Source: an uncultured Pseudomonadales bacterium
GTDB lineage: Bacteria; Patescibacteriota; Microgenomatia; UBA1400; CAYXSR01
DNA length: 64,000 nt
Assembly: GCA_964467735.1 (NCBI GenBank)
Contig: CAYXSR010000002.1
Coordinates: 51,885 to 115,884, forward strand
Reading direction: 5' to 3'
Shown here: piece after piece, positions 34,561 through 59,304 of the stretch
How the letters are laid out: each line of letters starts with the position of its first letter
Position numbering within the stretch: position 1 is the first letter of the stretch
Position numbers and translations under genes: made by a program
Notes under the pieces: generated by a model
Told to the model about the DNA's origin: nothing
The model's input: only the letters and a program-made list of their open reading frames with translations
Databases searched by the model: none

Positions 34561-35268
34561 TCATTTATCTTTCAGTGAGTAAAAAAACCAACGATTCACT
34601 AAAAAGTAAGGCATAATGTTTGCAAGAAATATATCAATTTTTTCTAACAGAAAAGCATTTCTAGGTAGGATTGGGAAAAAGCCGCTTTTCTTAATATTCC
34701 TAAGTAAGAATTTATTATCATCAAGCATCCTTTTAATCCTATTCATTGTAAAAAAGTTAACATGATAATAGCCTAGGGTTGTCGTAATCTTCAATATCTT
34801 CCTTAAATAAATTAAAGGAAGATCAAAAAACAATTCGTAGCTACCATAACCATTGGGAATCGAGAGAATAAAAAGACCTTTTTCCTTTAGTAGTTGATGG
34901 GCTTTTCTCAAAATTATATCAGGATTGTTAACGTGTTCTAAAACTTCTGTTAATAAAACAACGTCATATTTTTTTGTGGTCTTAAGATTTTCAATTGAAC
35001 TTTTCATCAACTTAATATTTCTTCGTGGAATCCCCAGTTTATCTGTAAAAATTTTGAAGTTATTTAATAACTTAGCATTCATATCTACGCAAGTAACTTT
35101 ATATCCAAGCTTTAACAAAGGAAGAGAAACATGACCATACCCAGTTCCCAAGTCAATAATTTTTACCCTATCTTTATTCATTTTTACACAATGCTCTTCT
35201 GTCGGTTTAATAATGTTATCTAAATTATCTTTATTAAGAGGAGATAGAGAACTTTTTTTATTTTTCAT
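34561..35268 (-). CDS. Class I SAM-dependent methyltransferase
   Basis: IIDLGTGYGHVSLPLLKLGYKVTCVDMNAKLLNN...YDVVLLTEVLEHV. Confidence 0.65.
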   Translation of the reverse strand: MKNKKSSLSPLNKDNLDNIIKPTEEHCVKMNKDRVKIIDLGTGYGHVSLPLLKLGYKVTCVDMNAKLLNNFKIFTDKLGIPRRNIKLMKSSIENLKTTKKYDVVLLTEVLEHVNNPDIILRKAHQLLKEKGLFILSIPNGYGSYELFFDLPLIYLRKILKITTTLGYYHVNFFTMNRIKRMLDDNKFLLRNIKKSGFFPILPRNAFLLEKIDIFLANIMPYFLVNRWFFYSLKDK

Positions 35269-36502: not shown

Positions 36503-36507
36503 TTGAT

Positions 36508-37551: not shown

Positions 37552-37553
37552 AT

Positions 37554-38717: not shown

Positions 38718-40531
38718 TCTTCCTCTACCGGAGCAACAAACATATTTTTTAAGAATTCTTCTCGCGGTAGAAAGGGAAACATGTCTTCTAAAGGCTTGGA
38801 CACCATTTTTCCTTCTTTGGTTTTCCTGGAACTAACTGTTGGAATAATGGGCTGTTCTTTGGGAGAAATTATTTCACAAATAACTGGGCCCTTTGTTTTA
38901 AAAGCATATTCTAGGGCTTTATCAAGCTCACTGTTTTTATTAGCTTTTACATAATTTATTCCATAAGCACGGGCTATTTTTTTACAACTTGGAAAAGAAA
39001 CACCTGAACTAGGACCTTCGCCAATAAGTCTTCCAAAATAATTCTTCTGGGTAAATCTTATAGAAAGATAGCCATCATTGTTAATTATAAATATTTTGAT
39101 CGGTAGCTTATGGTGAATAATAGTCTGCAGTTCTTGAATATTTTGCTGGAAAGAACCATCACCATTAATACAAATAACCCTACCTTTATTAGAAGCAAAA
39201 CTAGCCCCAATACTGGCTGGAAGACTGTAACCCATAGCTCCAAAACCACCCGAGGTAAGGTACCGCATGTTTTTTCTGACCTTTATGGTCTGGGGTCCAA
39301 CATAAAGAACTGATCCTGCATCAGTTATCACAATTTCATTACTCTTTAAGTAATTGGAAAGCTTGTCAAAAAAATAATAAATGTTAATTTCTTTTTTTAA
39401 TTTTCTATATTCCGGTAAAACTGGATTGTATTTTCTTCTCCATCCCACACATACCTTAAGCCATTTGCTGTTAAAATGATATTTTTCCTCATCTAGAGTC
39501 TTTAAGGTTTTTGTAAGAAAGTTATCAATGTCCGCTTGAATTAAAAGGTCTATTTTTACGGCTTTCTTCTGGTGAGAACATTTATCTATATCAACAACAA
39601 CAATTTTTGCTTCTCTGGCAAAAAAACTATATTCAAAGCCTATCTCTGATATTGGAAGGCTACTTCCTAACACTAGCAACAGATCAGAATTCTGAACTGC
39701 AAAGTTGCCTGCCCTTGTTCCCTTAATACCAATTCTTCCCGTATAGCTAGGATTGTTGGTAGTAATTACATCAACACCCAGATAAGTTGTAACTACGGGA
39801 ATATTGTATTTCTTAATAAACTTTCCAAAGTTATCAATCGCCCCAGAAGCTCTAACTCCTCCACCGGCTAAAATTACCGGTCTTTTTGCCTGCTTTAATA
39901 AATTTACAAAAGTTTTAATATCTTTAGCACTCGCTTTGCTTATTTTGTCTACTGGAGGAGTAAAACTGCGGAGACTTTTAGAATCAATATAGGCTCCTTG
40001 TACATCTAAAGGTACATCAAGCCAAACTGGTCCCGGTCTGCCTGATTTTGCTGCATATATTGCTCTTTGAAGATGATATTTAATGTCTTCTGGTTTATCA
40101 ATAAAAGCGGCGTATTTTGTAATTGCTTTCACCATCGGCATAATATTGATTTCCTGGACTCCACACTGCCTAATCCCCAGGATTTTCATATAACAAGTTG
40201 CCTCTACTCTTTTCGCTTGTCCGGAAATATAAAGGCTGGGGACCGAATCTACATAGGCACCAGCAGTTCCGGTAAAAGCATTAATTGCTCCAGGGCCGGT
40301 GGTAAAGTAACCAACACCTAAATTTCCGGTTACTTTTGCATATCCATCTACTGCCATAGCTGCTGCTTGTTCATGATGATAACAAACAGGTTTAATCTTT
40401 TTGTTTGCCGCCAATCCATCACTTAAATACATCATTCCGCCACCAGAAAGCAAATGAACATGTTTAACCCCACAGTTGGAAATGAATTGGGCAATAAAAT
40501 CGGAGACTCTGATCCTTTTTTTACTTACCAT
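38714..40531 (-). CDS. Thiamine-diphosphate-dependent enzyme, acetolactate synthase large-subunit family (YerE-like candidate)
   Basis: 605 aa. N-terminal VKHVHLLSGGGMMYLSDG (Pyr domain). The ThDP-binding fingerprint is INGDGSFQQNIQELQTIIHHKLPIKIFIINNDGY (GDG..~27..NN). The middle domain resembles the FAD-binding domain of ALS-like enzymes. Confidence 0.7.
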   Translation of the reverse strand: MVSKKRIRVSDFIAQFISNCGVKHVHLLSGGGMMYLSDGLAANKKIKPVCYHHEQAAAMAVDGYAKVTGNLGVGYFTTGPGAINAFTGTAGAYVDSVPSLYISGQAKRVEATCYMKILGIRQCGVQEINIMPMVKAITKYAAFIDKPEDIKYHLQRAIYAAKSGRPGPVWLDVPLDVQGAYIDSKSLRSFTPPVDKISKASAKDIKTFVNLLKQAKRPVILAGGGVRASGAIDNFGKFIKKYNIPVVTTYLGVDVITTNNPSYTGRIGIKGTRAGNFAVQNSDLLLVLGSSLPISEIGFEYSFFAREAKIVVVDIDKCSHQKKAVKIDLLIQADIDNFLTKTLKTLDEEKYHFNSKWLKVCVGWRRKYNPVLPEYRKLKKEINIYYFFDKLSNYLKSNEIVITDAGSVLYVGPQTIKVRKNMRYLTSGGFGAMGYSLPASIGASFASNKGRVICINGDGSFQQNIQELQTIIHHKLPIKIFIINNDGYLSIRFTQKNYFGRLIGEGPSSGVSFPSCKKIARAYGINYVKANKNSELDKALEYAFKTKGPVICEIISPKEQPIIPTVSSRKTKEGKMVSKPLEDMFPFLPREEFLKNMFVAPVEEE

Positions 40532-40566
40532 TTAAAAACCCAATTTAGTATAGAATATAATAATAT

Positions 40567-40595
40567 TTAATATCCGCTATCATTTCAAGTATCAA
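40567..40595 (-). promoter_or_regulatory. Putative sigma70-like promoter (-35 TTGATA / 17-bp spacer / -10 TATTAA) in the 115-bp gap upstream of the ThDP-enzyme gene
   Basis: Minus-strand reading ttgatacttgaaatgatagcggatattaa. This is the only sizeable intergenic gap within the long minus-strand gene array between 43426 and 17592. Confidence 0.2.
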
Positions 40596-40646
40596 AAATA
40601 AACTAGTCATTACTCCTACATTCTTCTCTGCTATGAATTGTGTATA

Positions 40647-41615
40647 CTAATTAGACTTTAATAAAAGATTGTTATACCAGTTAAAAACAATTGGAATTGT
40701 TTTATTAAAATCATAGGTAGGCCGCCAACCTAGGCTTTTCTTTATTTTCTGGTAATTCAAACTTTGGTAACTTATTTCATTTCTGGCAATATTAAGTATT
40801 TTATATTTAATTTTTTTCTTTAGTATTGTCTCTACTTTTTTTATTGCTTCCAAAACCGAATATGTCTCATCTGTAGAAATATTAAATACTTCTCCCATAG
40901 TTTTTTCTATGTTTTCAGCAATTAAAATATAGGCCTTAACCACATCTTTAATATAAATAAAATCACGGATACATTTACCATTACTTCTTATTTTAAGGAC
41001 TTTGTTTTTAATCAAAGACTCCATTATTCCTGGTATTAAACGATTGAAATTTAAATCACCGGGTCCATAGATATTGCCAAAACGAGTAATAGCAACAGAT
41101 AAACCATATGTTTTGTAATAAGTATGAGCCACAAGGTCGGCACAAGATTTGGAAACTTCATAAGGATGGTCTCCTTTTAAAGGATCTGTTTCTTTGTATA
41201 CTTTATCCAGTTTTCCATAAGCTTTATCCGAAGAAGCAACAATTATTCCCTTTACCTTCCTATATAGTCTTGCTGTTTCCAAAATATTGACTGTTCCCAT
41301 TATATTAGTTTCCAAAGTTTCCAAAGGATTATAATAAGCAGTTTCTACAATTGGTTGAGCAGCCAGATGAAAGATAAATTCAATTTCATACTTGGTAACA
41401 ATATCAAAAACTCTTTTAAAGTTTTTTATATCACAATCCACCATTGTTGTCTTTTTATAGAGTTTTTCTTGGGTAAAAAAAGAGTGAGGATCAAAGCTTC
41501 TTTGAGGAACAACCACTCTTGCCTTTTTTTCAAGCAAGTCTTTTACTAAGTGACTGCCTACCAAACCACAGCCACCGGTCACTAGAATATTTTTACCAAC
41601 AAGTTTCATTTCCAA
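40647..41615 (-). CDS. ddhB: CDP-glucose 4,6-dehydratase
   Basis: Colinear matches to the Salmonella RfbG sequence as I remember it. FHLAAQPIVETAYYNPLETLETNIMGTVNILE parallels FHMAAQPLVRLSYEQPIETYSTNVMGTVHLLE. SSDKAYG parallels SDKCYDN. HPYEVSKSCADLV parallels DPYSNSKGCAELV. NRLIPGIMES parallels DRLIPDILRS. N-terminal VTGGCGLVGSHL Rossmann motif. Confidence 0.8.
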   Translation of the reverse strand: MEMKLVGKNILVTGGCGLVGSHLVKDLLEKKARVVVPQRSFDPHSFFTQEKLYKKTTMVDCDIKNFKRVFDIVTKYEIEFIFHLAAQPIVETAYYNPLETLETNIMGTVNILETARLYRKVKGIIVASSDKAYGKLDKVYKETDPLKGDHPYEVSKSCADLVAHTYYKTYGLSVAITRFGNIYGPGDLNFNRLIPGIMESLIKNKVLKIRSNGKCIRDFIYIKDVVKAYILIAENIEKTMGEVFNISTDETYSVLEAIKKVETILKKKIKYKILNIARNEISYQSLNYQKIKKSLGWRPTYDFNKTIPIVFNWYNNLLLKSN

Positions 41616-42385
41616 ACTTTCCAGGGCGGGATTCCTTTATTCCAAAGTTTATTTAAACCTTCAACTTCTTTATAAGTATCCATACAATACCAAAATTTTT
41701 CGTGCTTATATAATGATAATTGTCTTTCTTTTGCTAAACGAGACAAAGCTGGGTGTTCTGTTTCTCCAGGTTTAAGATATTTAAAAAATCTTTTATCAAA
41801 AACCATAAAACCACCATTAACGTAATCGGAAAGAGTAGGTTTCTCCTTGAATGCTTTAACCAAGTTGTTTTTATCAACTTTAATTAAACCATATTTCACT
41901 ATCGGATTGACGCCGGTAATCGTCCCAATTATTTTTTGTTTTTTATGAAAAGCAACGAGCTTTTTAATATTAATATCAGAAACACCATCACCATAAGTAA
42001 CCATAAAATATTTATCCTTGTCGGGAATGTATTTCTGACAAAGCAAAATTCTTTCTCCTGGTAAAGTTTCTAATCCAGTATCAACAAAGGTTATTTTAAA
42101 ATTATCAACACTATTTCTATTTTCCAAAAAGAATTTCTTTTTAAAAGTTTCTGTATCTAGAGTAAAATCACAAGTAAATGCTTTTTGATTAATAAAAAAG
42201 TCTTTTATATATTCTGCTTTATAGCCCAAAGCCAGAATAAACTCGTTAAAGCCATAATGGGAATAAATTTTCATTATATGCCATAAAATAGGTCGACCCC
42301 CAACTAAAACCATTGGTTTTGGCTTGAATTCGGTTTCTTCTTTTAGGCGAGTACCTGTGCCACCGCATAGTATTATGGTTTTCAT
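41606..42385 (-). CDS. ddhA: Glucose-1-phosphate cytidylyltransferase
   Basis: Near full-length colinearity with RfbF/DdhA as recalled. [41 protein letters not shown] parallels [65 protein letters not shown] and [12 protein letters not shown] match YGDGV, INGGFFVLN, FWQPMDTLRD and LWEKGKAPWKTW. 259 aa versus 257 aa. Confidence 0.9.
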   Translation of the reverse strand: [259 protein letters not shown]

Positions 42386-47631: not shown

Positions 47632-49458
47632 ATGTTAACAGGAAAACAAAAAAAATATCTATTAAAGAATGTTAGGAAAGAAAACCTAGCTAAACTGTCA
47701 AAAAGACTGGATGTCCCCAAAAAAGAAATTCTTGCTTATTTTGAAAAACGTTGGTCCAAAGGCAAATTTCAAAAATATCTCAAAAGTTATTTTAAACAAA
47801 ATAATGAGAAAAAAACTAATCATTTTAAACTAAGAAATTTCGTTTCATTTCATAAAAAAGAATTGCTTTTTTTAGTCACTATAGTATTAATTTCATACAT
47901 TAATACTTTAAACAATGACTTTGTCTCTGATGATGTTGCTGCCATTCAGACAAACCCTAATTTACCAACATGGCATAATGTAATTGTTGCTCCCCAAGCA
48001 TTAATCCGTCCATTTCTGAATTATTCTATCTATCATTTGTTTGGCTTAAAACCCTGGGCTTTTAGGATAATTAATATTCTATTTCATTTAGGAACAGTAC
48101 TTATTGTCTATTATTTTATAAGTTTACTCATTAATAAGGCAGTTGGTTTTTTAACGGCCTCGATTTTAGCTGTTCATCCTCTCCAAATTGAAGCAGTAAG
48201 TTGGATTTCCGGCGGACCTTATTCTCAGTATAGCTTCTTTTTAATGTCTTCTCTTCTTTCTTATTACCTTTTTATAAGAAAAAGGAAAGTAAAATATTAT
48301 TTTATATCAATTCTATTATATTTTTTAAGTCTGCAGTCTTCTGAAAGAGCTGCAGTATTACCAATAATGATTTTTGCTTTCTTACTTGCTTATAAAAAGT
48401 TTAAAAAATACTGGCTTTCATTAATACCCTTTATTACCTTAAGTGGTTTCTGGGTTCTTATTTTTATGGGAATAATAAAATCAAGGGTTACTATTCTTCA
48501 GTCCGATTACTACCAAAATGATGGTACAATAAATCCTTTATTTAAAGCTGTTGTTGCTTTTTCTTCTTATTTAGGACTTGCTCTTTTCCCAAAAAACTTA
48601 ACCCTTTACCATTCGGAGCTATCTTTTTCTATTTATGACTTTGTCTTTAGGGTAGTAATCGTTGTCATACTAGGCACTCTCTCCCTACTATGCTTTAAGA
48701 AACAAAAGCATTTTTTCTTCTGGCCAATATTCTTTGCTGTCTCTCTTCTTCCGACACTAACCCCTTTTAATGTCACTTGGGTAGTAGCCGAAAGATATGT
48801 TTATCTTGGCAGTATCGGCTTATATGTTGTCTTTTCGCTGATTGTTTATAAACTTATAAAAAAAATTTCAAACTATAAAAACCTTCATTATAATTATTGG
48901 ACAGTATTACTAATACTAGTAATCATGTTATCATTAAGAACAATTGCAAGAAATATTGATTGGGATAATCAAGATAATCTTTGGCTTTCCGCTGCTAAAA
49001 CCTCTCCTTCAAGCCCCCAAAATCATAACAACTTGGGAGATTTATACACCCGCCAAAAAAACTATCAAAAAGCAATTGAAGAATTTAACAAAGCCATCCA
49101 ATTGAATCCTAATTATGCTGATGCTTATCATAATTTAGCCAATACTTTTTTACAAAGTGGCCAGCCGGAAAAAGCAATTGCTAGCTATCAGAAATCCTTA
49201 GAAATTAATCCAACAATATGGCAATCACATCTCGCTTTAGGCGCTATTTATTTTGATCAAAAAGACTATCAACAAGCAAAATCTCATATACTTGAAGCAA
49301 TTAGCATTAAGCCAAATAATCCAGATCTTTATTCAAATCTTGGTTTAATTTATCTTAAAATTGGAGATTATGAAAAAGCAGTTTCATCTTTAAATAAAGC
49401 GTTAGAAATTGATCCAAACAACAATCGAGCAAAAGATATATTAATAAATTCTAGATAG
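47632..49458 (+). CDS. PMT/TMTC-like GT-C membrane glycosyltransferase with a C-terminal TPR-repeat domain
   Basis: N-terminal loop NTLNNDFVSDDVAAIQTNPNL (F..DD...I..N signature of PMT_2/TMTC-type enzymes), about 9-11 TM helices, then 4-5 TPR repeats (NHNNLGDLYTRQKNYQKAIEEFNKAIQLNPNYADAYHNLANTF...). Confidence 0.65.
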   Translation: MLTGKQKKYLLKNVRKENLAKLSKRLDVPKKEILAYFEKRWSKGKFQKYLKSYFKQNNEKKTNHFKLRNFVSFHKKELLFLVTIVLISYINTLNNDFVSDDVAAIQTNPNLPTWHNVIVAPQALIRPFLNYSIYHLFGLKPWAFRIINILFHLGTVLIVYYFISLLINKAVGFLTASILAVHPLQIEAVSWISGGPYSQYSFFLMSSLLSYYLFIRKRKVKYYFISILLYFLSLQSSERAAVLPIMIFAFLLAYKKFKKYWLSLIPFITLSGFWVLIFMGIIKSRVTILQSDYYQNDGTINPLFKAVVAFSSYLGLALFPKNLTLYHSELSFSIYDFVFRVVIVVILGTLSLLCFKKQKHFFFWPIFFAVSLLPTLTPFNVTWVVAERYVYLGSIGLYVVFSLIVYKLIKKISNYKNLHYNYWTVLLILVIMLSLRTIARNIDWDNQDNLWLSAAKTSPSSPQNHNNLGDLYTRQKNYQKAIEEFNKAIQLNPNYADAYHNLANTFLQSGQPEKAIASYQKSLEINPTIWQSHLALGAIYFDQKDYQQAKSHILEAISIKPNNPDLYSNLGLIYLKIGDYEKAVSSLNKALEIDPNNNRAKDILINSR

Positions 49459-49487: not shown

Positions 49488-49976
49488 TCAAAATCCCATT
49501 TGTTTCTTGATCTTAATGTGTTTCTGATAATGCTCGGGTGGAACTAATTCCTTTAATTTAAATCTTTTGCTTATTCTATATAAAGTCGAATAAGATTTGA
49601 ATAGGATATTATTGGTATAAACATCAACTGTTAAATGAAAAATCAATGAGAGACTAATGGCTAATGCCACAATTTTCATTTCTTTTTCGTCAGATAGTAA
49701 AAAAATTAAAAGACTTACTACTGAATATTCCCAGCCATGAAAAGGGACAATAATCTTATCACTGATTAGAAAATGATAACCCTTTAAAAAATATTTAAAA
49801 TTTATCACTGAACCCATGGCGAAAACATAATCAAATAGATGATCAATGTCAATAAAAACCCCCACTATTACCGCTGGAATAAAACTAAGTATAAGATTTT
49901 TATATATTAAATAAACAATAAAACCTGCAAGCAAACTAAAGAAAAGATGAATGAAAAGATGGAGAAATAATCTCAT
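49488..49976 (-). CDS. Small polytopic membrane protein (possibly DUF457-type membrane-bound metal-dependent hydrolase)
   Basis: 162 aa, about 4 TM helices, His-rich short motifs (IDHLFDY, HGWEY, HLTVDVY). It has a 4-nt overlap with the upstream radical SAM gene. The family assignment is weak. Confidence 0.3.
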   Translation of the reverse strand: MRLFLHLFIHLFFSLLAGFIVYLIYKNLILSFIPAVIVGVFIDIDHLFDYVFAMGSVINFKYFLKGYHFLISDKIIVPFHGWEYSVVSLLIFLLSDEKEMKIVALAISLSLIFHLTVDVYTNNILFKSYSTLYRISKRFKLKELVPPEHYQKHIKIKKQMGF

Positions 49977-51451
49977 TTATTTTTTTTACTAAAATCACTC
50001 AATTTGCCGAAATATTTTAAAGCCATAATAAAATAAGTTTTTACATCTTCCCAGGATCTGATTGATAAAATTTTCCTGATAATAAATTCGGGAGTTATAA
50101 AACTACTATATAGTTTTTGAACCATTACTTTTAATTCTTTTTCGCCAACTGGGCTTTTCATAATCGCACTTCTCATATCATAGTCATCCCAGTCTTCGGT
50201 TAGCAACCATTTATTTTTTTTACAATCTTTAAAAAGCGGCGTTCCAGGATAAGGAATAACTATCGTTGCCTGCATAGAATCGGCATAACCTTTTTTGAAT
50301 AACTTTTTTGCCAGGTCTAGCGTCCTTTGCGTATCTTTTTTATTTTCCCAAGGATAACCAACCATAACTGTATAATGTGGCTCTAATCCTGCTTGTTTGG
50401 CTTTTTTTATTCCTTCCTTTATTTGTTTAACTTTTAAATTTTTATTAATTTTGTCTAATGTCTTTTGATTAGCTGACTCTAACCCATATAGAATAAATCT
50501 AAAACCTGCTTTTTTCATTAATTGGTAATCGCTTAAAGACAAGCCGCAATTAAAACGCATATTGCAATCAATAGTTACTTTTTTATTAAGACCACGTTTA
50601 ATCATCTTCCTGCAAAACTCTCTTAACCAATCACCAACTGGAAAAGTACCAGAATCATCCATAATTTCTTTTACTTTTAAATTCTCCACTAAGTGATTAA
50701 TTTCTTTTAAAACATTATCCACTGATCTTACCCGATATTTTTCGCCAGGAAAAAGGGTTGTCCATGAGCAAAAAGTACACTTTCCCCACCAACAATCTCT
50801 GCCTGCCATAATATAAGTTCCGGGATATTTTTTAAAATTTGAATTTTTATAGGCATAAAGCTGCCATTTTGTAAGTTTGCGGTCAATTATTGGAGTCTGG
50901 TTAAGATCATGCGCCAAATTAAATCTACCTGTCGATTTAATTTTCCCCTTCTTTTTCCAGTAAAATCCCGGCTCTAATTTCACCTTATCTTTGGTTTGTA
51001 AATATTTGGCCAAATTTAAAAGTAAAAAGTCAAAGTCACCTCCAGTTAAAATATAATCAACAGGAGAATTTTCAAGCGATTCTTTCGGCAATGCGGTTAC
51101 GTGATCACCCATTAAGACTATTTTCATCTTTCTGTTTGTCTTTTTTAAATCTTTTATTATCTGCCAATATCTTTTAACTACTGGAGTTTTAACCTCAAAA
51201 GCAATCAAATCGGGTTTAATTTTCTTAACACTGTTTAAAAATTGTCTGTATGTCTTTTTCTCAGCAATGTAATCCAGCCAATAAACTTTAAAACCGGCAT
51301 TCTTTAACATTGTTGCTGCGGTAGCTGGAACTACCGGATAAATGAAATAAGCTGTTTTTTTGTCAGTAAACCATTGAAACTGTCTGTTTTGTGATAATAA
51401 CGGCGTTCCTTTTTCTGACTCAAGAGGCGGATATGCAATAGCTATTTTCAT
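49973..51451 (-). CDS. B12-binding-domain radical SAM protein (class B-like)
   Basis: N-terminal Rossmann-like B12-binding region (KIAIAYPP...IAFEVKTP...KIVLMGDHVTALP). The radical SAM core has a cysteine triad at AGRDCWWGKCTFCSW, counted as C-X4-C-X2-C rather than the canonical C-X3-C-X2-C. Downstream TIM-barrel-like motifs are present (GLESANQKTLDKINK). Confidence 0.6.
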   Translation of the reverse strand: MKIAIAYPPLESEKGTPLLSQNRQFQWFTDKKTAYFIYPVVPATAATMLKNAGFKVYWLDYIAEKKTYRQFLNSVKKIKPDLIAFEVKTPVVKRYWQIIKDLKKTNRKMKIVLMGDHVTALPKESLENSPVDYILTGGDFDFLLLNLAKYLQTKDKVKLEPGFYWKKKGKIKSTGRFNLAHDLNQTPIIDRKLTKWQLYAYKNSNFKKYPGTYIMAGRDCWWGKCTFCSWTTLFPGEKYRVRSVDNVLKEINHLVENLKVKEIMDDSGTFPVGDWLREFCRKMIKRGLNKKVTIDCNMRFNCGLSLSDYQLMKKAGFRFILYGLESANQKTLDKINKNLKVKQIKEGIKKAKQAGLEPHYTVMVGYPWENKKDTQRTLDLAKKLFKKGYADSMQATIVIPYPGTPLFKDCKKNKWLLTEDWDDYDMRSAIMKSPVGEKELKVMVQKLYSSFITPEFIIRKILSIRSWEDVKTYFIMALKYFGKLSDFSKKNK

Positions 51452-51510: not shown

Positions 51511-52554
51511 TTAATAAAGTTTACTTGATAATAATCCTTTAATAAATCTTATTCCATAGTAAATATGGCTAACCAAAATTGTTGGTATTACAAACAAACC
51601 AACAATAATTTTTTTACTCTTTATTGTTACCCAAAATCCGGTAATTAAAAGAAGTAAAATATAAAAAGAAATTGTACAAAAATAAATAAGACTAAAAATA
51701 TGCGATAAAAGCTGAAGTTTTAAAAATCTTAAGAAAATAATAATAAACGGACTAAATAGTAAGCCCAAAGTAAATAATGACGGCAGAAAATAACCTAATC
51801 TTCTCGAGGTTTTAGGAAGTATTTTTACAAAAAATCCTCTATGAAAACCATACCTTCCTAATTGTTTAAGATGTTTTTTAAAAATTTTTCGACGGTGATG
51901 ATGGACGATAACTTTTGGGTCATAAATTATCTTTTTTCTTAACTTATAAACAATATCGTGGCACAACTTAGTATCTTCACCAGGATAAAAACGAGAATTA
52001 AAACCACCCAACTTTTCAAAATCTTTTTTTCTAATAAGTAAGTTAAATGTCGGATAGTCATCTACTAGTTGTTTTTTTCCCGGAAAACAACGGTAAGTTC
52101 CTGCTCCCCCTGCTCCTAACCAAGAACTCCACATCCATCCGGATACTTGCTGTTGCCAACAATTATTTCTTGGTGTTAATCCGGGACCGCCAACGGCAGC
52201 AATTTTCAGATCATTAAAATTTAGCAATGCATTTTCAAGCCACTGACGGTCTGGATATGCATCATCATCGATAAAGGCTAAAATTTCTCCTTTTGCCAGA
52301 TTTGCACCTAAATCTCTTTTTTTTGCCGGCCCTTTTTCATTTGTCCTTATAATCCTTAAAGAATATTTATATTTTTTATTTAATTTTTTATCCCTTTCGC
52401 TCAATTCATCAACTACAATTATTACTTCAAATTCTTTATAAGTTTGCTTTGCTAAGCTAGGAAGTAACTCTTTGCTAATATAATCATTAATTTTAAGTAC
52501 CGGGACAATAACCGAAAACATTCTTCTTTTATTTAACTTTTGTTTTTTTTGCAT
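51511..52554 (-). CDS. Glycosyltransferase family 2 with C-terminal transmembrane domain
   Basis: FSVIVPVLKINDYISKELLPSLAKQTYKEFEVIIVVDE...AFIDDDAYP, followed by about 4 TM helices. Confidence 0.65.
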   Translation of the reverse strand: MQKKQKLNKRRMFSVIVPVLKINDYISKELLPSLAKQTYKEFEVIIVVDELSERDKKLNKKYKYSLRIIRTNEKGPAKKRDLGANLAKGEILAFIDDDAYPDRQWLENALLNFNDLKIAAVGGPGLTPRNNCWQQQVSGWMWSSWLGAGGAGTYRCFPGKKQLVDDYPTFNLLIRKKDFEKLGGFNSRFYPGEDTKLCHDIVYKLRKKIIYDPKVIVHHHRRKIFKKHLKQLGRYGFHRGFFVKILPKTSRRLGYFLPSLFTLGLLFSPFIIIFLRFLKLQLLSHIFSLIYFCTISFYILLLLITGFWVTIKSKKIIVGLFVIPTILVSHIYYGIRFIKGLLSSKLY

Positions 52555-53287
52555 AATAATTAAGGATTCTTAACCGATAAAAGACTGCTAAAGTATCCCA
52601 AAGCATTAAAAATATAGCTTTGTAAGTAGCGGCACTAGTTAAACCACCAAACTGGAATTCCAATCTTATTGGGGCGTCATAAATCCTTTTATATCCGAAT
52701 GATCTAGCTACTGCTAGCATCTCGATATCAAAAGCATATTTCTTAACTAACAATACCGGCAGAATCTTTTTTAGTACTGGTTTTTTAAAAACTTTAATTC
52801 CTGCCTGAGTATCTGTTACTTTAACGCCAAATAAAATTTTGACAATATTATAATACCCCCAGCTTAGAATCTTTCTAATCAGGGGGTACTCAACCTGGGA
52901 AACCGGATGCCTTTTTGAACCAACAATTATATCAGCATCATACCAAATCAAGTGTTGTAAAAGCATAGAAATCCCAATCGGGTCGATTTCCAAACCCGCA
53001 TCTATAAAAGAAACATAATCTCCTTTTGATTTTTTCATTCCAAATCTAATTGCATACCCTTTCCCTTGATTCTTTTTATATGAATAAACTCTAATTTTAC
53101 TTGAGGCCGCTTTTTTTGCATTTTTATATGAGTTATCAATTCTCCCATCGACAACTACCACTATTTCGTAGTTCCATCCTGACTGATCAAGTGTTTTTTT
53201 AATCCTTAAAAGATCTTTTTTAATTGTTTTTCCTTGTTTATAAACAGGAATAATGACTGAAAGCAAAAAGTTATCTAAGTTTCTCAT
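52529..53287 (-). CDS. Polyprenol-monophosphate glycosyltransferase (Dpm1/GtrB/ArnC-like GT2)
   Basis: LSVIIPVYKQGKTIKKDL...YEIVVVVDGRIDNS...KNQGKGYAIRFGMKKSKGDYVSFIDAGLEIDP...DADIIVGSKR (DxD...GSR architecture of the Dpm1 family). Confidence 0.6.
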   Translation of the reverse strand: MRNLDNFLLSVIIPVYKQGKTIKKDLLRIKKTLDQSGWNYEIVVVVDGRIDNSYKNAKKAASSKIRVYSYKKNQGKGYAIRFGMKKSKGDYVSFIDAGLEIDPIGISMLLQHLIWYDADIIVGSKRHPVSQVEYPLIRKILSWGYYNIVKILFGVKVTDTQAGIKVFKKPVLKKILPVLLVKKYAFDIEMLAVARSFGYKRIYDAPIRLEFQFGGLTSAATYKAIFLMLWDTLAVFYRLRILNYYAKKTKVK

Positions 53288-54563
53288 TATTAAAATTAGA
53301 ATATATTAAAAGACTAATAACTAGTATAGCAGTTGCGCTAGTTGAGCTAATAATAATTTGATAAATATCTTGATGAAATAATTTTATCAGTAATATTTGA
53401 ACAAGAGCGGCTCCTAAAGGAAAATATCCGATTAGCTTATCTTCAAGGGCCATATAAAAACTGGTTAAAACATTTGCTAAGCTATAAAAAGAAATAAAAA
53501 TTGAAAAAATTCCAAGATAACGAGCCGCCGCTAAATACTTTTTGCCGTACAACATAAATAAAATAGTTTTAGGAAAAGTAAAATAAAGCAAGGCCAAAAA
53601 TAAACAAACCAGCAGGATAAATCCTAAAGTCAAATACAGCGGCTTTCTGTAGTTTGTATTCTCTTCTTTTTTCTTGATTGTCAAAGGCATCATTACTGTT
53701 AAAATTGGAGAAGAAGCAAAAAAGATTACTTTGCCAAGAACCGAAGCACTTGAATACAAACCAGCATCAAAACTAGATAAGTAATGCTTCGTTAAAACTA
53801 TATCAGAAGTATACAGGCTTGTCATTCCTAAAACAGCTAAGAAGACTGGCAGTGAATTTATCCAGAAACCCTTAATGTTTATTTCCTTTATTTCTCCATC
53901 CTTATCCCCTTCTCTGTTTTTTAAAACAAAAGGAATAAAACTTATTGTTAGGATTATTGCACCTGATAAAATTATTGCTCCCAATATTTTTCCAATTGAA
54001 ATACCAACTAAAGTTAGCAAAAATACAAAAACAATCTTTAAAATCCCTCCACCAACACTTATGCCGGCTAAAAATTTGAAGTTCATCAGTGCTTGGGTAA
54101 AGGCAAGGTTTGGAATATTAATAAAGGCCACAAAACTGACAAAAGCGGCAAGGATAATAAAGTTGGGGTTATCAATCTTTAAAAATGTTGCCAGTGGTCT
54201 ACTTAAAATATAACAAACCAGGTTTATAAACATTCCCAATATAAATACTTGCCAATAGGATTTTTTAAAGAAACTAATTGCCTCTGCCTTTTTTTTTCTA
54301 GACCATAATTTAGCTATTTCTCTCATTATCGTTGTTAGGATTACTGTTGAAAAAATACCAGTAAAGTAAGTCAAAGAGATAAGACTTGTTAGCACTGCAT
54401 AGTCTTTGGGTCCTAAAACTCTACCTGTTATCAGGTGAAAAAGATAATTTGTGACATTGCCTAAAAAATTACCAGCGGTCAGAATAAAACTGCCGGCAAA
54501 TAGTGGATGTTTTATAATCCTCTTAATTTTATCTCTCATAAATTTATGATACCCACCAACCAC
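53271..54563 (-). CDS. Wzx-like flippase (MOP superfamily polysaccharide biosynthesis protein)
   Basis: 430 aa, about 12 TM helices. N-terminal SFILTAGNFLGNVTNYLFHLITGRVLGPKDYAVLTSLISL resembles the Polysacc_synt N-terminus. Confidence 0.55.
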   Translation of the reverse strand: MVGGYHKFMRDKIKRIIKHPLFAGSFILTAGNFLGNVTNYLFHLITGRVLGPKDYAVLTSLISLTYFTGIFSTVILTTIMREIAKLWSRKKKAEAISFFKKSYWQVFILGMFINLVCYILSRPLATFLKIDNPNFIILAAFVSFVAFINIPNLAFTQALMNFKFLAGISVGGGILKIVFVFLLTLVGISIGKILGAIILSGAIILTISFIPFVLKNREGDKDGEIKEINIKGFWINSLPVFLAVLGMTSLYTSDIVLTKHYLSSFDAGLYSSASVLGKVIFFASSPILTVMMPLTIKKKEENTNYRKPLYLTLGFILLVCLFLALLYFTFPKTILFMLYGKKYLAAARYLGIFSIFISFYSLANVLTSFYMALEDKLIGYFPLGAALVQILLIKLFHQDIYQIIISSTSATAILVISLLIYSNFNNEKLR

Positions 54564-55620
54564 GAGTAAATAGGGCGGTTAAAATAATTGAAAGCAGCAA
54601 ACTTAGAACAACTACCGTGTTGTAAATTTTATTATTTTTAATACAACCAATTAAAATAAAAACACTAAAAGCCGGAAGCACATATCTTGGTATAGAAGAA
54701 AAAGTTCCGGTTAAAGTGGGTAAGATAATTATTAATATTGAAAATAATCCATAAGATTTCCTAACCTTAAAGTATGAAATAATGGCTAAATACAAGAATG
54801 AAATCGCCATAACAAATTCTAAAATCGCAATCCAAAAATCATAACTTTTAACCGGAACAGTGAAAAAGATCTTCAGATAACGCCAAATAACTTGATAAAT
54901 AAGGACTAATCTACCACCAGATCGATTGGCTCCAAAGGCTGGCTGAGCATGAAAGAAAAATAAAGGATCCTGTACGTTTTTCCAAAGATAAGACATATAA
55001 GAAAAAAGTCCTAATGGAATAAGTATTAACCAAGAAAGGTCTTTAAGGTATCTCTTTTTTTTAATTTGTTCTTTCCATTCTATAATTAAAGCCAATAGTA
55101 AAATTATTCCTATTAGTCTTGTAGCACTCGCCAAGCAACCAAGAACACCAGCTAACCACCATTTTTTCTTTCTTACCGCATAAAAACTTCCCAATATCAA
55201 TGCTAAAAACAATGATTCTGTATACACTGAAGCAAAGAAAAATGAGGTAGGAAAGATTAACAATAAAAGTAGACTTCTTTTTGCAACCTTTTTGTTGAAA
55301 TCAAGCCTTACCAACTTAAATAGTAAAACAAGACTAATGAAGAATGAAAAATAAGAGATAACAAAAGCGCTTAATAAAAAATTATGACCTAAGAAAAATG
55401 ATAGTTTTTTTATTAACCACGGATATAAAGGGAAAAAGGCCTGCTCATATTGAACATAACTTATCTTTGCAATTGATAAATAATGCAGGCCGTCAAAATT
55501 GGCCCAGACTGATGGCCCTAAAAATCCCAAACGTTGGGGAATAAATCTTTTTGCTAACAAGGAGATTATTTCTAAAAAAATTCTCCAAAATGTTAAACTA
55601 GCAATAATAAACCAATGCAT
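54544..55620 (-). CDS. GT-C-like membrane mannosyltransferase-family protein (PIG-V/GT87-like)
   Basis: VWANFDGLHYLSIAKISYVQYEQAFFPLYPWLIK resembles the W..wDg.hYl.IA..GY...FfPlyP signature of PIG-V-type mannosyltransferases; about 9 TM helices. Confidence 0.45.
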   Translation of the reverse strand: MHWFIIASLTFWRIFLEIISLLAKRFIPQRLGFLGPSVWANFDGLHYLSIAKISYVQYEQAFFPLYPWLIKKLSFFLGHNFLLSAFVISYFSFFISLVLLFKLVRLDFNKKVAKRSLLLLLIFPTSFFFASVYTESLFLALILGSFYAVRKKKWWLAGVLGCLASATRLIGIILLLALIIEWKEQIKKKRYLKDLSWLILIPLGLFSYMSYLWKNVQDPLFFFHAQPAFGANRSGGRLVLIYQVIWRYLKIFFTVPVKSYDFWIAILEFVMAISFLYLAIISYFKVRKSYGLFSILIIILPTLTGTFSSIPRYVLPAFSVFILIGCIKNNKIYNTVVVLSLLLSIILTALFTRGWWVS

Positions 55621-56698: not shown

Positions 56699-57847
56699 CT
56701 ATTTTTTCGTTCTTTTTTTAAACTTAATTCTAAAATTTGCTAGAAATTCTTTTATCCCCCATAATCCTAAAACATAAGTAAAAGGCAGTAGCGGCAGTAA
56801 ATAGCGCGCATTTGCCTGGTTTAAAGATAAAAATAATAAATAATTAAAAATCCAGATCATAACTACTTCTGCTGGCATATTTTTTTGAATTTTTTTAAAT
56901 AAATAAGCTGTAATTGTTAGTAAACTTATTCCTGTACCTAGGGGCCAAAACAGTTGCCAAGTGACTTCTTTAACAACCTCGCTATCCCCCCACCATGTTT
57001 GCCACTGATTTAAAAATATTAACTTCCAGACCGTAAAAGGATAAATAGACTTACTCTTATGATAAGCAAATAACCATTTTTGAATTCTTAAAACGTCTAG
57101 AGGATTTTTGCCTTCTTTAAAAATAGCAATGTAGCTTAATATCAGTATTAATAATGAAAAAGTCAATGAATATAAAAGAAACTTTAATGATTTTATATCT
57201 TTTTTCATTATTAAAAGAAGAATGAAGGCAAAAAGAAGAATTAATCCTGTTATGAAAAACTTAACTCCAAATATAACTCCTATAAAAATACTGACAAGAA
57301 TAAAAAAGGCAATTTTTTTCTTCTGAAGCGCTTTGATAAAAAAAAGAATCGATAACGAAATAAAGGTAAGCTGGATAATGTCTAGAAGTGGAGTATTCTC
57401 AAACTGACGTAAAAATAGCTTTTCAAAAGAAAGAACAAGTATTGGCAATAAAGCAAATAAATTATCTCGCATTATCTTTTTGCCGATAAAAAATAAAGAC
57501 AACAGAAACACCAAACCAAAGATAATAATTGCAATGTTTTCATTATTAAATAACAAAACAGAAAGAGAAAGAAAATACTTTCCTAAAGGAGGCTGTGTGC
57601 TCTGAATAACTGTTGGATTTGCGCCTTTTAAGTACTCGCCAGCCGCATAGGAATAAAGTATTTCATCCGGAACCCACCCGACTGGATTTTTTATAGCATA
57701 CTGCGAATTCCAATATGAAGTTTTATAAAACTCAAATCTGTCCCAATATTTATACAAATATCTATCTTTAAAGGAATATATATATTTCCCAAAATTAAAA
57801 AAACAGATAATTAGTATAATAAGAAATATAACACCCTTTAGCTTCAT
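56699..57847 (-). CDS. ArnT/PMT-family GT-C membrane glycosyltransferase (short form)
   Basis: First loop GWVPDEILYSYAAGEYLKGANPTVIQSTQPPLGKYFLSL matches the DE..Y...A...(K)PPL.Y loop of GT83/GT39 enzymes; 382 aa with about 9 TM helices. Confidence 0.5.
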   Translation of the reverse strand: MKLKGVIFLIILIICFFNFGKYIYSFKDRYLYKYWDRFEFYKTSYWNSQYAIKNPVGWVPDEILYSYAAGEYLKGANPTVIQSTQPPLGKYFLSLSVLLFNNENIAIIIFGLVFLLSLFFIGKKIMRDNLFALLPILVLSFEKLFLRQFENTPLLDIIQLTFISLSILFFIKALQKKKIAFFILVSIFIGVIFGVKFFITGLILLFAFILLLIMKKDIKSLKFLLYSLTFSLLILILSYIAIFKEGKNPLDVLRIQKWLFAYHKSKSIYPFTVWKLIFLNQWQTWWGDSEVVKEVTWQLFWPLGTGISLLTITAYLFKKIQKNMPAEVVMIWIFNYLLFLSLNQANARYLLPLLPFTYVLGLWGIKEFLANFRIKFKKRTKK

Positions 57848-59304
57848 GGTTTTTCCCTATACCACCACTTAACATAATTATCATAAATTGCTTGAGGTCT
57901 GGCAGCAACCCAACCTACAGATTCCAGATTTTCCCTATCTGAAGATAAATCTACAAACATTCCTGCCTTGAGCTGATCTTCTTTATTTTTGAAATCACAA
58001 TTCTTGGAATATATTCCTAGAATTTTATCCGAACCTTTATCATAAATTTTCTTTACTATAAAGGAAAGCAGCACCGAATCTTTATTATTATCTAAGTCTT
58101 TTTCACAGTAATAAAGATCTATTTGTTCATAACCTTCACTTTTTAATTCGCTAATGATCTTTTTTAATTCTACAGCCGAAAAATCTCTATCTGTTAAAAG
58201 AGATTGATTTAATGAATTTTTGGTAATAAAAAGCCATATAGGAATAAATATAATAATTAAAGCAAAAAGGTGTTTCTTGGAAATTAGTTTAAAAAATTCA
58301 TAGAATAATAAACCTACATAAATAAAAACAAAAGGACTAAAAAATTGCATCCAACCAAAATACCTTTCCCCTCTCCAATATCTAATTATGACTACCTGAA
58401 TGCCAAAATTAATTGTTAATAGCAATAAACTCTTGTTTATTCTTTTTCTAATTAAGTAGTTTAATATTAAAAAGACAGACAAAAACATTAAGATTAATGA
58501 CAAAAATTTGCTTCCCCCTAAAAAGAATTGCCACACTTTTGGAAAGAAATCAAAAACAAATGTTAACCAGCGCATACTTGTCCATAGTTGGTATTGTGTA
58601 TGAAATAAAAAATCATAAACCCCTCTTAAATTAAACCAATGATTGTTCAAATCAAAAGCCAACATGGGTAAACCAGAAATAAATAAACCTAGAAATGGCC
58701 AAATAATTTCTTTGATACCTTTAATAATTAAAAACAGTAACAGTAAAGTTAATAAACCGGCTCCTTGATAATGAGTAAACAATGTTATACCTATTAACCA
58801 TCCAAATATTATATATATTAGTTTATTCTCTTCTCCTTTTATTATCTTTACAAAAAATAAAATTACTAATGATGTTAGAAAAACAACTAACGAAGGATTT
58901 GTTAAAACCAAACTATTGTCTATAGAATTGGGAGAAATCGTAGTTAAAAACCCCAGAATCAAACCAAGGTTCTGATCTTGCAAGATTCCTCCTATCTTAT
59001 ACATTAAAAAAACCGTCAGCAGTGAAGCAATTCCAACTCCAATCCAGGGAGCGTAGACTGAGGGAATTAAAAGTTGAGATACAATTAAATAATACCAGTA
59101 CCACGGACCAATAGTTAAAGGACCAATAGAGGCCCAAGGTCCAGTTAATGGAAGTTGAAGATCCTTACTTGCTACTTTACTTACAATAAAATCCCTTGCA
59201 CTTTCCCATCCATAACTGACTCTTTGATTATAATGATGAAACCTAAGATAAGCACCAAAAATTAAGAAAATAACCAAAACAACCGTATATTTATTGAACT
59301 TCAT
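57844..59304 (-). CDS. Polytopic GT-C-like membrane glycosyltransferase
   Basis: 486 aa, about 12 TM helices. The N-terminal loop YGWESARDFIVSK is similar to the loop of 6652..8079, and there is a C-terminal soluble domain. Confidence 0.45.
   Translation of the reverse strand: MKFNKYTVVLVIFLIFGAYLRFHHYNQRVSYGWESARDFIVSKVASKDLQLPLTGPWASIGPLTIGPWYWYYLIVSQLLIPSVYAPWIGVGIASLLTVFLMYKIGGILQDQNLGLILGFLTTISPNSIDNSLVLTNPSLVVFLTSLVILFFVKIIKGEENKLIYIIFGWLIGITLFTHYQGAGLLTLLLLFLIIKGIKEIIWPFLGLFISGLPMLAFDLNNHWFNLRGVYDFLFHTQYQLWTSMRWLTFVFDFFPKVWQFFLGGSKFLSLILMFLSVFLILNYLIRKRINKSLLLLTINFGIQVVIIRYWRGERYFGWMQFFSPFVFIYVGLLFYEFFKLISKKHLFALIIIFIPIWLFITKNSLNQSLLTDRDFSAVELKKIISELKSEGYEQIDLYYCEKDLDNNKDSVLLSFIVKKIYDKGSDKILGIYSKNCDFKNKEDQLKAGMFVDLSSDRENLESVGWVAARPQAIYDNYVKWWYREKP

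Follow-up and report, generated by a model that had tools for sequence, protein, structure and literature searches.

The window analysed here is a 64,000-nucleotide stretch from an uncultured and probably ultra-small bacterium placed in the Patescibacteriota (Microgenomatia; GenBank assembly GCA_964467735.1, contig CAYXSR010000002.1, positions 51,885 to 115,884). All coordinates count from its first nucleotide. On the minus strand, positions 49488 to 51451 encode a class B-type radical S-adenosylmethionine (SAM) protein, hereafter rSAM, and a small membrane protein. rSAM belongs to a large, sharply bounded family with a CX4CX2C cysteine motif and a conserved set of glycosylation genes around it, and is a candidate tailoring enzyme for lipid-linked sugars. 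The features of the two genes are as follows.

49973..51451, minus strand: rSAM open reading frame (ORF), 492 amino acids (aa), class B-type (B12-binding domain) radical SAM enzyme of the CX4CX2C family
51047..51325, minus strand: B12-binding domain core (Rossmann-type), residues 43-135 (Pfam PF02310)
50768..50794, minus strand: [4Fe-4S]-binding motif C220-WWGK-C225-TF-C228, then S229-W230 (translation and conservation)
50309..50797, minus strand: radical SAM partial triosephosphate isomerase (TIM) barrel core, residues 219-381 (Pfam PF04055)
49488..49976, minus strand: four-transmembrane membrane protein, 162 aa, divergent YdjM (PF04307)/DUF6122 superfamily (homolog matches and predicted structure)

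Both Pfam domains score above their cutoffs. PF04055 matches with 73.5 bits (cutoff 29.5), which places the protein in the Radical SAM superfamily, and PF02310 with 43.9 bits (cutoff 32.1). An earlier sequence-only reading had proposed a radical SAM protein with an N-terminal B12-binding-type domain, and the Pfam matches bear this out, including for the N-terminal domain, where a lack of B12-binding features would have spoken against the reading. The AlphaFold2 (AF2) model (predicted local distance difference test, pLDDT, 88.5; predicted template modelling score, pTM, 0.90) comprises a five-strand Rossmann domain, a beta-hairpin at residues 163-173 and then a partial barrel, capped by C-terminal helices. 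Conserved in the barrel, on predicted strands, are E262-I-M-D-D-S-G, G323-L-E325-S326 and M363-x-G365-Y-P367, linked to the GGE-like, ribose and GxIxGxxE-like SAM-binding motifs by position only. The 492-residue protein is almost certainly a functional, cluster-binding radical SAM enzyme.

The cysteine motif and its spacing

The motif RDCWWGKCTFCSW reads C220-X4-C225-X2-C228; its codons (50768..50794, minus strand) translate to CWWGKCTFC. rSAM has seven cysteines in total. Of these, only C220, C225 and C228 form a conserved candidate triad, which lies where the radical SAM barrel canonically begins. Lacking is any hidden canonical triad: a search of the whole rSAM sequence found no CX3CX2C. 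A C-X3-4-C-X2-C string arose in 38 of 20,000 shuffles of the protein's own sequence. The three cysteines are invariant in the aligned homologs (31/31), and the CX4CX2C pattern is present in all 120 of the closest database homologs (57-65% identical; consensus RDCWWG[KR]CxFCSW) and at 83 of 84 non-redundant loci, the exception (L077) having an X7 spacer, CWHRKEGGCKFC. Because it is invariant in the closest homologs and nearly so across the loci, the CX4 spacing is a family trait and not an anomaly.

There are also precedents. In the OxsB crystal structure the [4Fe-4S] cluster is ligated by CX4CX2C (PMC9204698), the active methylase GenD1 carries this motif (PMC4340712), and RadicalSAM.org lists a CX4CX2C megacluster (PMC9477430). 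The motif of the queuine lyase 6P78 is CIWGKCSFC. Thus the sequence-only reading counted the four residues between the first two cysteines correctly, but its view of the triad as nonstandard does not hold, given the invariance in the family and the OxsB and GenD1 examples. Nor is the triad formed by other cysteines, as it had allowed: annotated HpnJ from the hpnI/J/K locus of a Caballeronia plasmid (GRGCKS-RCTFCLW) aligns to rSAM with a single one-residue gap.

The spacing changes with distance from rSAM. The co-located B12-domain radical SAM paralogs of the same loci are all CX3 (20/20). We ran an exhaustive HMMER search over 1.84 billion cluster representatives and listed the 50%-identity clusters by rank. 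Among the best 60 clusters the first spacer is X4 in 23, X7 in 4, X10-X18 in 3 and X3 in 11, and at ranks 61-150 it is X3 in 64 and X4 in 5. The gradient from X4 to X3 with rank indicates that the first spacer is a plastic loop in the clade, with X4 as the mark of the family. The extra residue forms a bulge in the Cys-loop's first spacer, whose length varies freely in the clade (X3, X4, X7, X10-X18).

Some homologs outside the window carry inteins of about 170-480 aa within the Cys motif (P0241, P0242, P0244, P0249, P0250 and P0263). In P0241 the intein lies directly before the third cysteine (CTF/CFPPET…FAVKN/CSWTT, with slashes at the boundaries), as it does in P0244, P0249, P0250 and P0263; in P0242, where the loop is CX18CX2C, it precedes the first cysteine (LAVHN/CWW). 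Inteins typically occupy catalytically essential motifs, and their location at the motif cysteines fits a role of C220, C225 and C228 as cluster ligands. The spacer range of X3-X18 and these motif-targeting inteins provide a natural experiment on what the radical SAM Cys-loop tolerates.

Other full-length relatives outside the window are without all three cluster cysteines or the loop (P0247, P0253, P0254, P0265 and P0275; e.g., RDSDWGQSSLGS). The three best-ranked of them, P0247, P0253 and P0254, are 42-46% identical. These Cys-less paralogs retain the N-terminal motifs GDHVTALPEES and TGGDFDF, and may be pseudo-radical-SAM proteins in which the N-terminal domain has a role of its own.

Family, relatives and the B12-type domain

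A scan of one genome per species located the family at no fewer than 599 stretches (at least 599, with 595 confirmed by tblastn), so the modification is probably not the rarity that the sequence-only reading had supposed. The best 80 of these at least 599 stretches are 53-64% identical. Records are labelled as bacteria of the Candidate Phyla Radiation (CPR; Shapiro-, Saccharibacteria, Berkel-, Pacei-, Moran- and Magasanikbacteria), as Omnitrophota, Elusimicrobia, Deltaproteobacteria, Treponema and Dehalococcoidia, and as a few archaea (Bathyarchaeia, Woesearchaeota, Halobacteriota); such labels of metagenome-assembled genomes are possibly unreliable. The family is sharply bounded, with members scoring at least 620 bits and co-located paralogs at most 161 bits. 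No characterised family member was found in the literature.

None of the NCBIfam models reaches its own cutoff on rSAM. The top model is HpnJ (TIGR03471), with 187.2 bits (residues 30-473; cutoff 577.6), followed by BchE (114 bits) and ApyD (102 bits). Between 86 and 58 bits are an MJ_1487-type family, the ladderane-type lipid radical SAM family (86), PhpK, the methyl-coenzyme M reductase (MCR) glutamine C-methyltransferase, a C-methyltransferase subfamily for peptides made on the ribosome and modified after translation (RiPPs; 72), HpnR, ArsL, the Sden_1168 family and BzaD. Models named for methylases (PhpK, MCR glutamine C-methyltransferase, HpnR and others) give at most 84 bits, and the AprD4 model NF033070 gives 37.7 bits over residues 181-433 only, against a cutoff of 500. 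The sequence-only reading had taken GenK and Fom3 as the type; among the NCBIfam models, the closest characterised family is instead HpnJ, a putative ring-contraction enzyme. In tblastn searches of plasmids, annotated HpnJ is 27-28% identical over 91-93% of the rSAM query. Sequence matches in the Protein Data Bank (PDB) cover the barrel only (MgmA/QCMT 9CCB, AprD4 6FD2 and queuine lyase 6P78), and a PDB profile search at E<=10 did not retrieve OxsB, TokK or TsrM by sequence. By structure, Foldseek ranks AprD4 (1e-21; TM 0.73/0.79), MgmA/QCMT (6e-21) and OxsB (3e-19) ahead of TsrM, CysS and TokK (1e-18 to 6e-14).

HpnJ shares with rSAM the two-domain architecture, with about 93% of the length alignable at 27-28% identity, the R-x-C...C-x-x-C-x-W pattern and C296-N297. 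It is the best characterised-family model, its gene is coupled to that of a membrane glycosyltransferase, and its proposed substrate is a lipid-linked sugar. The proposed reaction, a ring contraction of bacteriohopanetetrol (BHT)-glucosamine to a cyclitol ether, is inferred from a knockout only (PMC13459092). In contrast to rSAM, HpnJ has the canonical CX3CX2C, its model's cutoff lies far above the rSAM score, and it lacks an insertion after strand 1 that is conserved in the rSAM family (SEKGxPLLSQNRQFQWF). OxsB (PDB 5UL4), which contracts a ring in a cobalamin-dependent reaction, has the CX4CX2C motif and a Rossmann cobalamin domain with beta-hairpin (Foldseek E ~1e-19, TMq 0.68), but is about 15% identical, is extended by additional domains at both termini (about 730 aa), acts on a nucleotide and carries Arg, not Trp, two residues past its motif. 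AprD4 (PDB 6FD2) is the best structural and top PDB profile match, with a Rossmann-like N-domain followed by a barrel, and also acts on a sugar, as a 1,2-diol dehydratase on paromamine. It differs in being without cobalamin binding (PMC12931638), in its 14-15% identity and in that NF033070 covers the barrel only. MgmA/QCMT (PDB 9CCB), the MCR glutamine C-methyltransferase, is the best single-sequence PDB match (E 3.5e-11) and has the class-1 cobalamin radical SAM fold (PMC12931638); it is 17% identical, has a canonical CX3 (CPGNC, a one-residue gap in HMMER) and modifies a protein. From their descriptions, GenD1, GenK, MoeK5 and Fom3, cobalamin-dependent C-methyltransferases of sugar or phosphonate pathways, share the class B architecture, GenD1 also Cx4Cx2C (PMC4340712), and GenK, GenD1 and MoeK5 act on sugars, all in actinomycete antibiotic pathways as opposed to the cell-surface glycan cassette of rSAM.

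Three further rSAM cysteines are conserved in the aligned homologs, C280 (31/31), C296 (30/31) and C410 (31/31), and could form an auxiliary metal site or supply a catalytic thiol. C296-N297, the pair shared with HpnJ, is at the end of a barrel strand; C296 aligns with a cysteine of AprD4, whereas the closest CX3 relatives have Ser or Gly there.

The N-terminal domain qualifies as the Rossmann B12-type domain of class B enzymes by its PF02310 match, AF2 fold and alignment to family models: those of HpnJ, BchE, PhpK, HpnR and BzaD align from residue ~30-45 onward, and several of the B12-domain families that align through it have a demonstrated need for cobalamin. The strand order b1-b5 plus hairpin is the layout of class-1 cobalamin enzymes, described for OxsB, TokK and TsrM (PMC13331322). 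Invariant in the family are E86-x-K88-T-P90-V91 after strand 3 and G115-D116-H117-x-T119-A120-x-P122 after strand 4, and very strongly conserved stretches follow strand 3 (ETKTPV), strand 4 (GDHVTALPEES) and strand 5 (TGGDYDF). Candidate equivalents of cobalamin contacts, matched by position only, are invariant (E86-x-K88-T-P, G115-D116, G138-D139 and W230), and the GG- and GE-like positions are each half-substituted (GD). In TokK, Trp215 at the Cys-X-Trp position stacks between cluster and cobalamin (PMC9204698); the invariant W230 of rSAM occupies this position, and HpnJ shares this Trp. The networks of B12-type radical SAM enzymes include AprD4 and ArsL homologs, which nevertheless do not bind cobalamin, so the domain alone is no proof of B12 use (PMC12931638). 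We consider it quite likely that cobalamin is actually used by rSAM.

Further CX3 B12-domain radical SAM paralogs, scoring 49-161 bits against rSAM, often occur at one or two per glycan cluster (L013, L021, L022, L024, L025, L031, L036, L042, L044, L052, L063-L065, L086 and L089). A gene for a glycosyltransferase of family 2 (GT2) adjoins 6 of the 20 CX3 paralogs, and radical tailoring thus seems common in such surface-glycan islands. The best plasmid relative outside the family is at 8001..9464 of L010, on Lawsonia intracellularis plasmid 1 (NC_008012.1; 27% identity, E 2e-39, CX3). Its glycan cluster encodes a second radical SAM protein, five class I methyltransferases, GT2s, two DUF2304 small membrane proteins, a SIS-domain protein, a HAD hydrolase and a GHMP kinase.

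The gene cassette and the proposed chemistry

The genes next to the rSAM pair are listed here; those on the minus strand lie upstream of rSAM.

51511..52554, minus strand: GT2b, GT2 glycosyltransferase with C-terminal multi-transmembrane region, 347 aa (Pfam GT2 families)
52529..53287, minus strand: GT2a, GT2 glycosyltransferase, 252 aa (resembles PgfS, ArnC, PpgS and AglJ)
53271..54563, minus strand: MOP/Wzx-type flippase-like membrane protein, 430 aa (Polysacc_synt 28.1 bits against a cutoff of 28.2, borderline)
54544..55620, minus strand: membrane protein with weak similarity to GT-C glycosyltransferases, 358 aa (PMT_2 E=4e-4, Mannosyl_trans2 (PIG-V) E=1.3e-3, both sub-cutoff)
47632..49458, plus strand: GT-C (PMT_2) glycosyltransferase with C-terminal TPR, 608 aa (Pfam PMT_2 and TPR), convergent with the operon

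The 84 non-redundant loci were annotated using the window's own proteins as queries. GT2b is the most constant neighbour of rSAM, adjacent upstream at 56 of 75 loci; at nine more it lies upstream on that strand no further than 3 kb away (65/75 in total), and 19 GT2b-rSAM gene pairs overlap by 4 nt. A GT2a ortholog lies upstream at 33 of 63 loci, and a flippase homolog at most 6 kb upstream at 41 of 63; Polysacc_synt was identified in the homologs of L002, L005 and L007. The TPR-PMT_2 ortholog (at least 300 bits) is present at 13 loci, often directly adjoining rSAM. The 358-aa gene upstream of the flippase gene has the same position in L002, where its counterpart is likewise 358 aa long. The cassette is conserved across phyla and consists of a MOP-type flippase, a PgfS/ArnC-like GT2, a membrane-anchored GT2 and rSAM as the last or second-to-last gene. 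In two loci the GT2 genes are fused directly upstream of the rSAM ortholog, as GT2a-GT2b (569 aa, L033:2742-4448) and as TPR-GT2a-GT2b (872 aa, L075:3038-5653), which argues that the two GT2s and the TPR module act together.

GT2a, the borderline flippase and an adjacent PMT_2 GT-C protein, which recur in related loci, are the parts expected of a three-component glycosylation system. The top NCBIfam matches are PgfS, ArnC, PpgS and AglJ for GT2a and MftF, EpsD and AglG for GT2b, all far under cutoff. By this sub-cutoff similarity GT2a may use a polyprenyl-phosphate acceptor, and the TPR-PMT_2 protein at 47632..49458 (plus strand) is a candidate user of the lipid-linked product. GtrABC, ArnC/D/E/F/T, PgfS/M and AglJ/G/R similarly combine a polyprenyl-phosphate GT2-like enzyme, a flippase and a GT-C transferase, and ArnD tailors the sugar while it is on the lipid. 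The distance of both GT2s from all family cutoffs sets the cassette apart from these systems, none of which, to our knowledge, uses a radical SAM enzyme for tailoring or has a second membrane GT2 in translational coupling with one. The sequence-only reading had also recognised a sugar cluster, and the window is indeed a glycan cluster, which makes radical modification of a sugar a reasonable reading. Lacking are hopanoid genes (hpnI, hpnK, shc and others were not found in the 64-kb window), and with them the genomic context of HpnJ. We considered GT2b as an HpnI ortholog and rejected it (BLASTP E=0.088, no kinship beyond the GT2 fold); the true hpnI/J/K locus is L009.

The rSAM stop codon TGA lies within the ATG start of the small-protein gene, a 4-nt overlap (ATGA, AAATGAGA). 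Both this overlap and the richness in histidine had been seen in the sequence-only reading. There are eight histidines, of which H10, H46, H80 and H114 are invariant or nearly so in 31-48 homologs; D43, D45, H46, D49, H80, E83, H114 and D118 are invariant and H10 near-invariant. The AF2 model (pLDDT 96.3) has four long helices and a basic C-terminal tail. Lys plus Arg averages 3.0 in loop 2, 4.6 in the tail and 0.9 in each of loops 1 and 3 (48 homologs), a distribution that fits an N-in/C-in topology and places the invariant residues near the cytoplasmic interface. Pfam gave nothing at E<=0.01 for the small protein itself, only DUF6122 at E=2.9. At E<=1, 21 of 31 homologs match YdjM (PF04307; best 1.4e-6) and 19 of 31 match DUF6122, and one homolog has a precomputed PF04307 annotation. 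These matches indicate superfamily-level relatedness to YdjM and not membership.

Like YdjM/DUF457 (PF04307) and DUF6122, the protein is small, spans the membrane several times and has D-x-D-H, H-G-x-E and H-x-x-x-D motifs. Going by this family-level resemblance it is probably a membrane-embedded, putative metal-dependent hydrolase; we know of no YdjM/DUF6122 member with demonstrated activity. The sequence-only reading had suggested a metal or cofactor partner, which does not suit a protein that looks like a YdjM-superfamily hydrolase rather than a cofactor carrier and that directly follows rSAM at only 21 of 74 loci. At four more it occurs elsewhere, nearly all of these loci being labelled CPR, and its gene is often followed by a further GT2. 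The small protein is thus a conserved but optional, mostly CPR accessory. It is rather unlikely that it tethers rSAM (and the following GT2) to the membrane as a passive anchor or assembly factor, or that it is an ArnE/ArnF-like subunit of a transporter or flippase. Such a role would suit the translational coupling suggested by the 4-nt overlap, the frequent position between rSAM and a further GT2, and a window protein that falls under every Pfam threshold and for which we found no solved structural relative; nine invariant or near-invariant His, Asp and Glu residues at one membrane face are hard to reconcile with a passive anchor, and two thirds of the homologs match YdjM, annotated as a putative metal-dependent hydrolase. 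We found no description in the literature of a YdjM-type gene linked to a radical SAM gene. The top literature match on the function of DUF457/YdjM concerned DUF4579 in a CRISPR Cap1 paper and was set aside as irrelevant.

We tentatively favour rSAM as a cobalamin-dependent radical tailoring enzyme that acts on a lipid-linked sugar. In this scheme the GT2 pair would first act at the cytoplasmic face, loading a sugar onto a membrane carrier that is most likely polyprenyl phosphate. The reduced [4Fe-4S] cluster of rSAM would cleave SAM to a 5'-deoxyadenosyl radical, which would abstract a hydrogen from the sugar. Cobalamin would then serve as methyl donor, in a C-methylation like those of GenK, GenD1 and MoeK5 (the slight favourite), or as redox partner in an HpnJ-type rearrangement. 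The modified unit would be flipped and used outside the membrane by GT-C (PMT_2/TPR) transferases, and the YdjM-like protein may serve to process the carrier lipid or to bring the soluble rSAM to the membrane. The substrate is probably a glycan or lipid-linked sugar. HpnJ, which a similarity network groups with Fom3 and MoeK5 (PMC9204698), has a lipid-linked sugar as its proposed substrate. The substrate of MoeK5 is likewise a lipid-linked sugar. C-methylation is a possible outcome, with the chances leaning slightly against it. It is favoured by a prior, since methylases make up the majority of the characterised class B enzymes, both overall and among those with sugar substrates, and by the CX4 shared with GenD1 and the Trp at Cys+2 shared with TokK-type methylases.

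Several points weigh against this reading. No genes for cobalamin transport, salvage or synthesis were identified among all ORFs of at least 120 aa in the 64-kb window, and CPR bacteria generally lack B12 synthesis. AprD4, the top Foldseek and PDB profile match, has a Rossmann-like N-domain and does not bind cobalamin (PMC12931638). The candidate residue under the corrin (K88 or T89, picked by eye from motif position) is polar, and by a rule drawn from a small sample a polar lower-face residue accompanies non-radical-methylating enzymes (PMC12931638). Substrate and chemistry are read from context and distant homology (28% identity to HpnJ) in a family without a characterised member, and neither HpnJ nor BchE, the characterised families with the highest scores, is a methylase. 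Polyprenyl-phosphate-linked sugars, glycolipids and nucleotide sugars are all candidate substrates. The small membrane protein is missing from about two thirds of the loci and is therefore not required for catalysis.

It is doubtful that rSAM carries out an HpnJ/Cds-type ring contraction, with cobalamin taking up electrons in the way proposed for OxsB. By a wide margin the top characterised-family match is HpnJ (187 bits over residues 30-473, against 114 for BchE and at most 84 for methylases), the shared C296-N297 and the Trp two residues past the third cysteine point the same way, and the rSAM gene is coupled to a membrane GT2 as in hpnI-hpnJ. The polar candidate lower-face residue would also suit a non-methylating enzyme (PMC12931638). 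A polysaccharide deacetylase, functionally analogous to HpnK, follows at three loci, but these are only 3 of 84. The match is far below the equivalog cutoff of 577.6, the hopanoid context is missing, GT2b is kin to HpnI only by the GT2 fold, C296 gives way to Ser or Gly in the nearest CX3 relatives, and the HpnJ reaction is itself proposed from a knockout only (PMC13459092). Moreover, the top rank of HpnJ may be a library artefact, because a similarity network groups HpnJ with Fom3 and MoeK5 (PMC9204698) and NCBIfam returned no model for those two. A more specific variant, which we regard as unlikely, is that GT2-GT2-rSAM makes a carbocyclic (cyclitol/calditol-like, ether-linked) or C-branched head group, new to these lineages and borne by a membrane lipid or lipid carrier, through an HpnJ/Cds-like ring contraction, and that the YdjM-like hydrolase of CPR bacteria would expose an alcohol or phosphate of scavenged host lipid for this remodelling. 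CPR bacteria are thought unable to make their own lipids.

That rSAM works without cobalamin, its N-domain being empty of B12 as in AprD4 and ArsL homologs, and dehydrates a sugar 1,2-diol, epimerises or oxidises, is quite unlikely. AprD4, itself a sugar 1,2-diol dehydratase, tops both Foldseek (E 1e-21, TM 0.73/0.79) and the PDB profile search, cobalamin-free relatives exist within the B12-type networks (PMC12931638), the window holds no B12 genes and the hosts are mostly organisms with reduced genomes. The Cys-less paralogs retain the N-terminal domain, which may therefore have a role independent of radical SAM cluster chemistry. Yet the AprD4 model covers the barrel only (37.7 bits against 500) while B12-domain models span the N-domain too, PF02310 is above its gathering cutoff, the GG-/GE-like and Cys-X-Trp positions are invariant, and an AprD3-like partner reductase is not conserved in the cassette. 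Very unlikely is a substrate other than sugar, either a RiPP precursor peptide or a lipid or polyprenol hydrocarbon that would be methylated or cyclised. The weaker NCBIfam matches to ApyD (102 bits), ladderane-type lipid radical SAM (86) and RiPP C-methyltransferases (72) would fit, but all are far under cutoff, the conserved neighbours in the 84 loci are glycosyltransferases and a flippase, and genes for precursor peptides, proteases, exporters or lipid synthesis do not recur there.

Class B radical SAM enzymes of glycan clusters and the CX4CX2C variant are already known, and nothing in the cobalamin-dependent sugar-tailoring reading contradicts current understanding. We did not find the family, the GT2-GT2-rSAM cassette or its mostly-CPR YdjM-like partner described in the literature, CPR-specific searches included. 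Class B radical SAM enzymes are a large and mostly uncharacterised class, in which this family is attractive for being sharply delimited and very strongly conserved, with 54-64% identity across labelled bacterial phyla and archaea. Since the same small, portable cassette occurs throughout, the substrate should be obtainable by co-expressing two or three neighbour genes. The family is thus no surprise, but a well-defined and tractable experimental lead. Solving its function would annotate thousands of metagenomic proteins, expose a modification of surface glycans or glycolipids common in CPR and other uncultivated lineages, and test whether the envelope depends on scavenged cobalamin in organisms without B12 synthesis.

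The surrounding glycosylation island

The 64-kb window is a glycosylation island throughout, and the minus strand carries nearly all of its genes. It contains about two dozen GT2/GT4 genes, six PMT_2-type GT-C genes, several class I methyltransferases, hexapeptide acyltransferases and sugar-nucleotide enzymes. Positions of other features are:

6652..8079, 47632..49458, 54544..55620 (weak), 56699..57847, 57844..59304 and 61612..63237: PMT_2-type GT-C genes
604..1224: Bac_transf initiating transferase
14999..16411: DUF2079 membrane protein

Four very large ORFs are present on the minus strand (8072..11149, 17592..19649, 20019..23492 and 23497..26415; 1025, 685, 1157 and 972 aa). Pfam gave them no significant match, only weak ones to Wzy_C (E=5e-3, first ORF) and DUF5667 (third ORF); within the glycan system they may act as polymerases or as large proteins of the membrane or surface. 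A scan for sigma-70 promoters and terminators over 47-57 kb (30% GC) was uninformative, with 57 promoter-like sites against 44±6 expected and terminators below expectation. In one CPR locus (L004:468-3002), genes for SAM synthetase and S-adenosylhomocysteine hydrolase were identified a few kb upstream of the cassette, which fits heavy SAM turnover without discriminating use by radical SAM enzymes from use by class I methyltransferases.

A CDP-dideoxyhexose-type sub-cluster occupies window positions 35258..42385 on the minus strand. It encodes a glucose-1-phosphate cytidylyltransferase (263 bits, cutoff 300), a CDP-glucose 4,6-dehydratase (212 bits, cutoff 278) and RfbH (622 bits, over its cutoff of 423), along with a short-chain dehydrogenase/reductase, a class I/II aminotransferase and a 605-aa acetolactate-synthase-like thiamine diphosphate enzyme. 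The last recalls the YerE-type two-carbon branching of CDP-sugars (yersiniose), and the island may thus build a C-branched sugar independently of rSAM.

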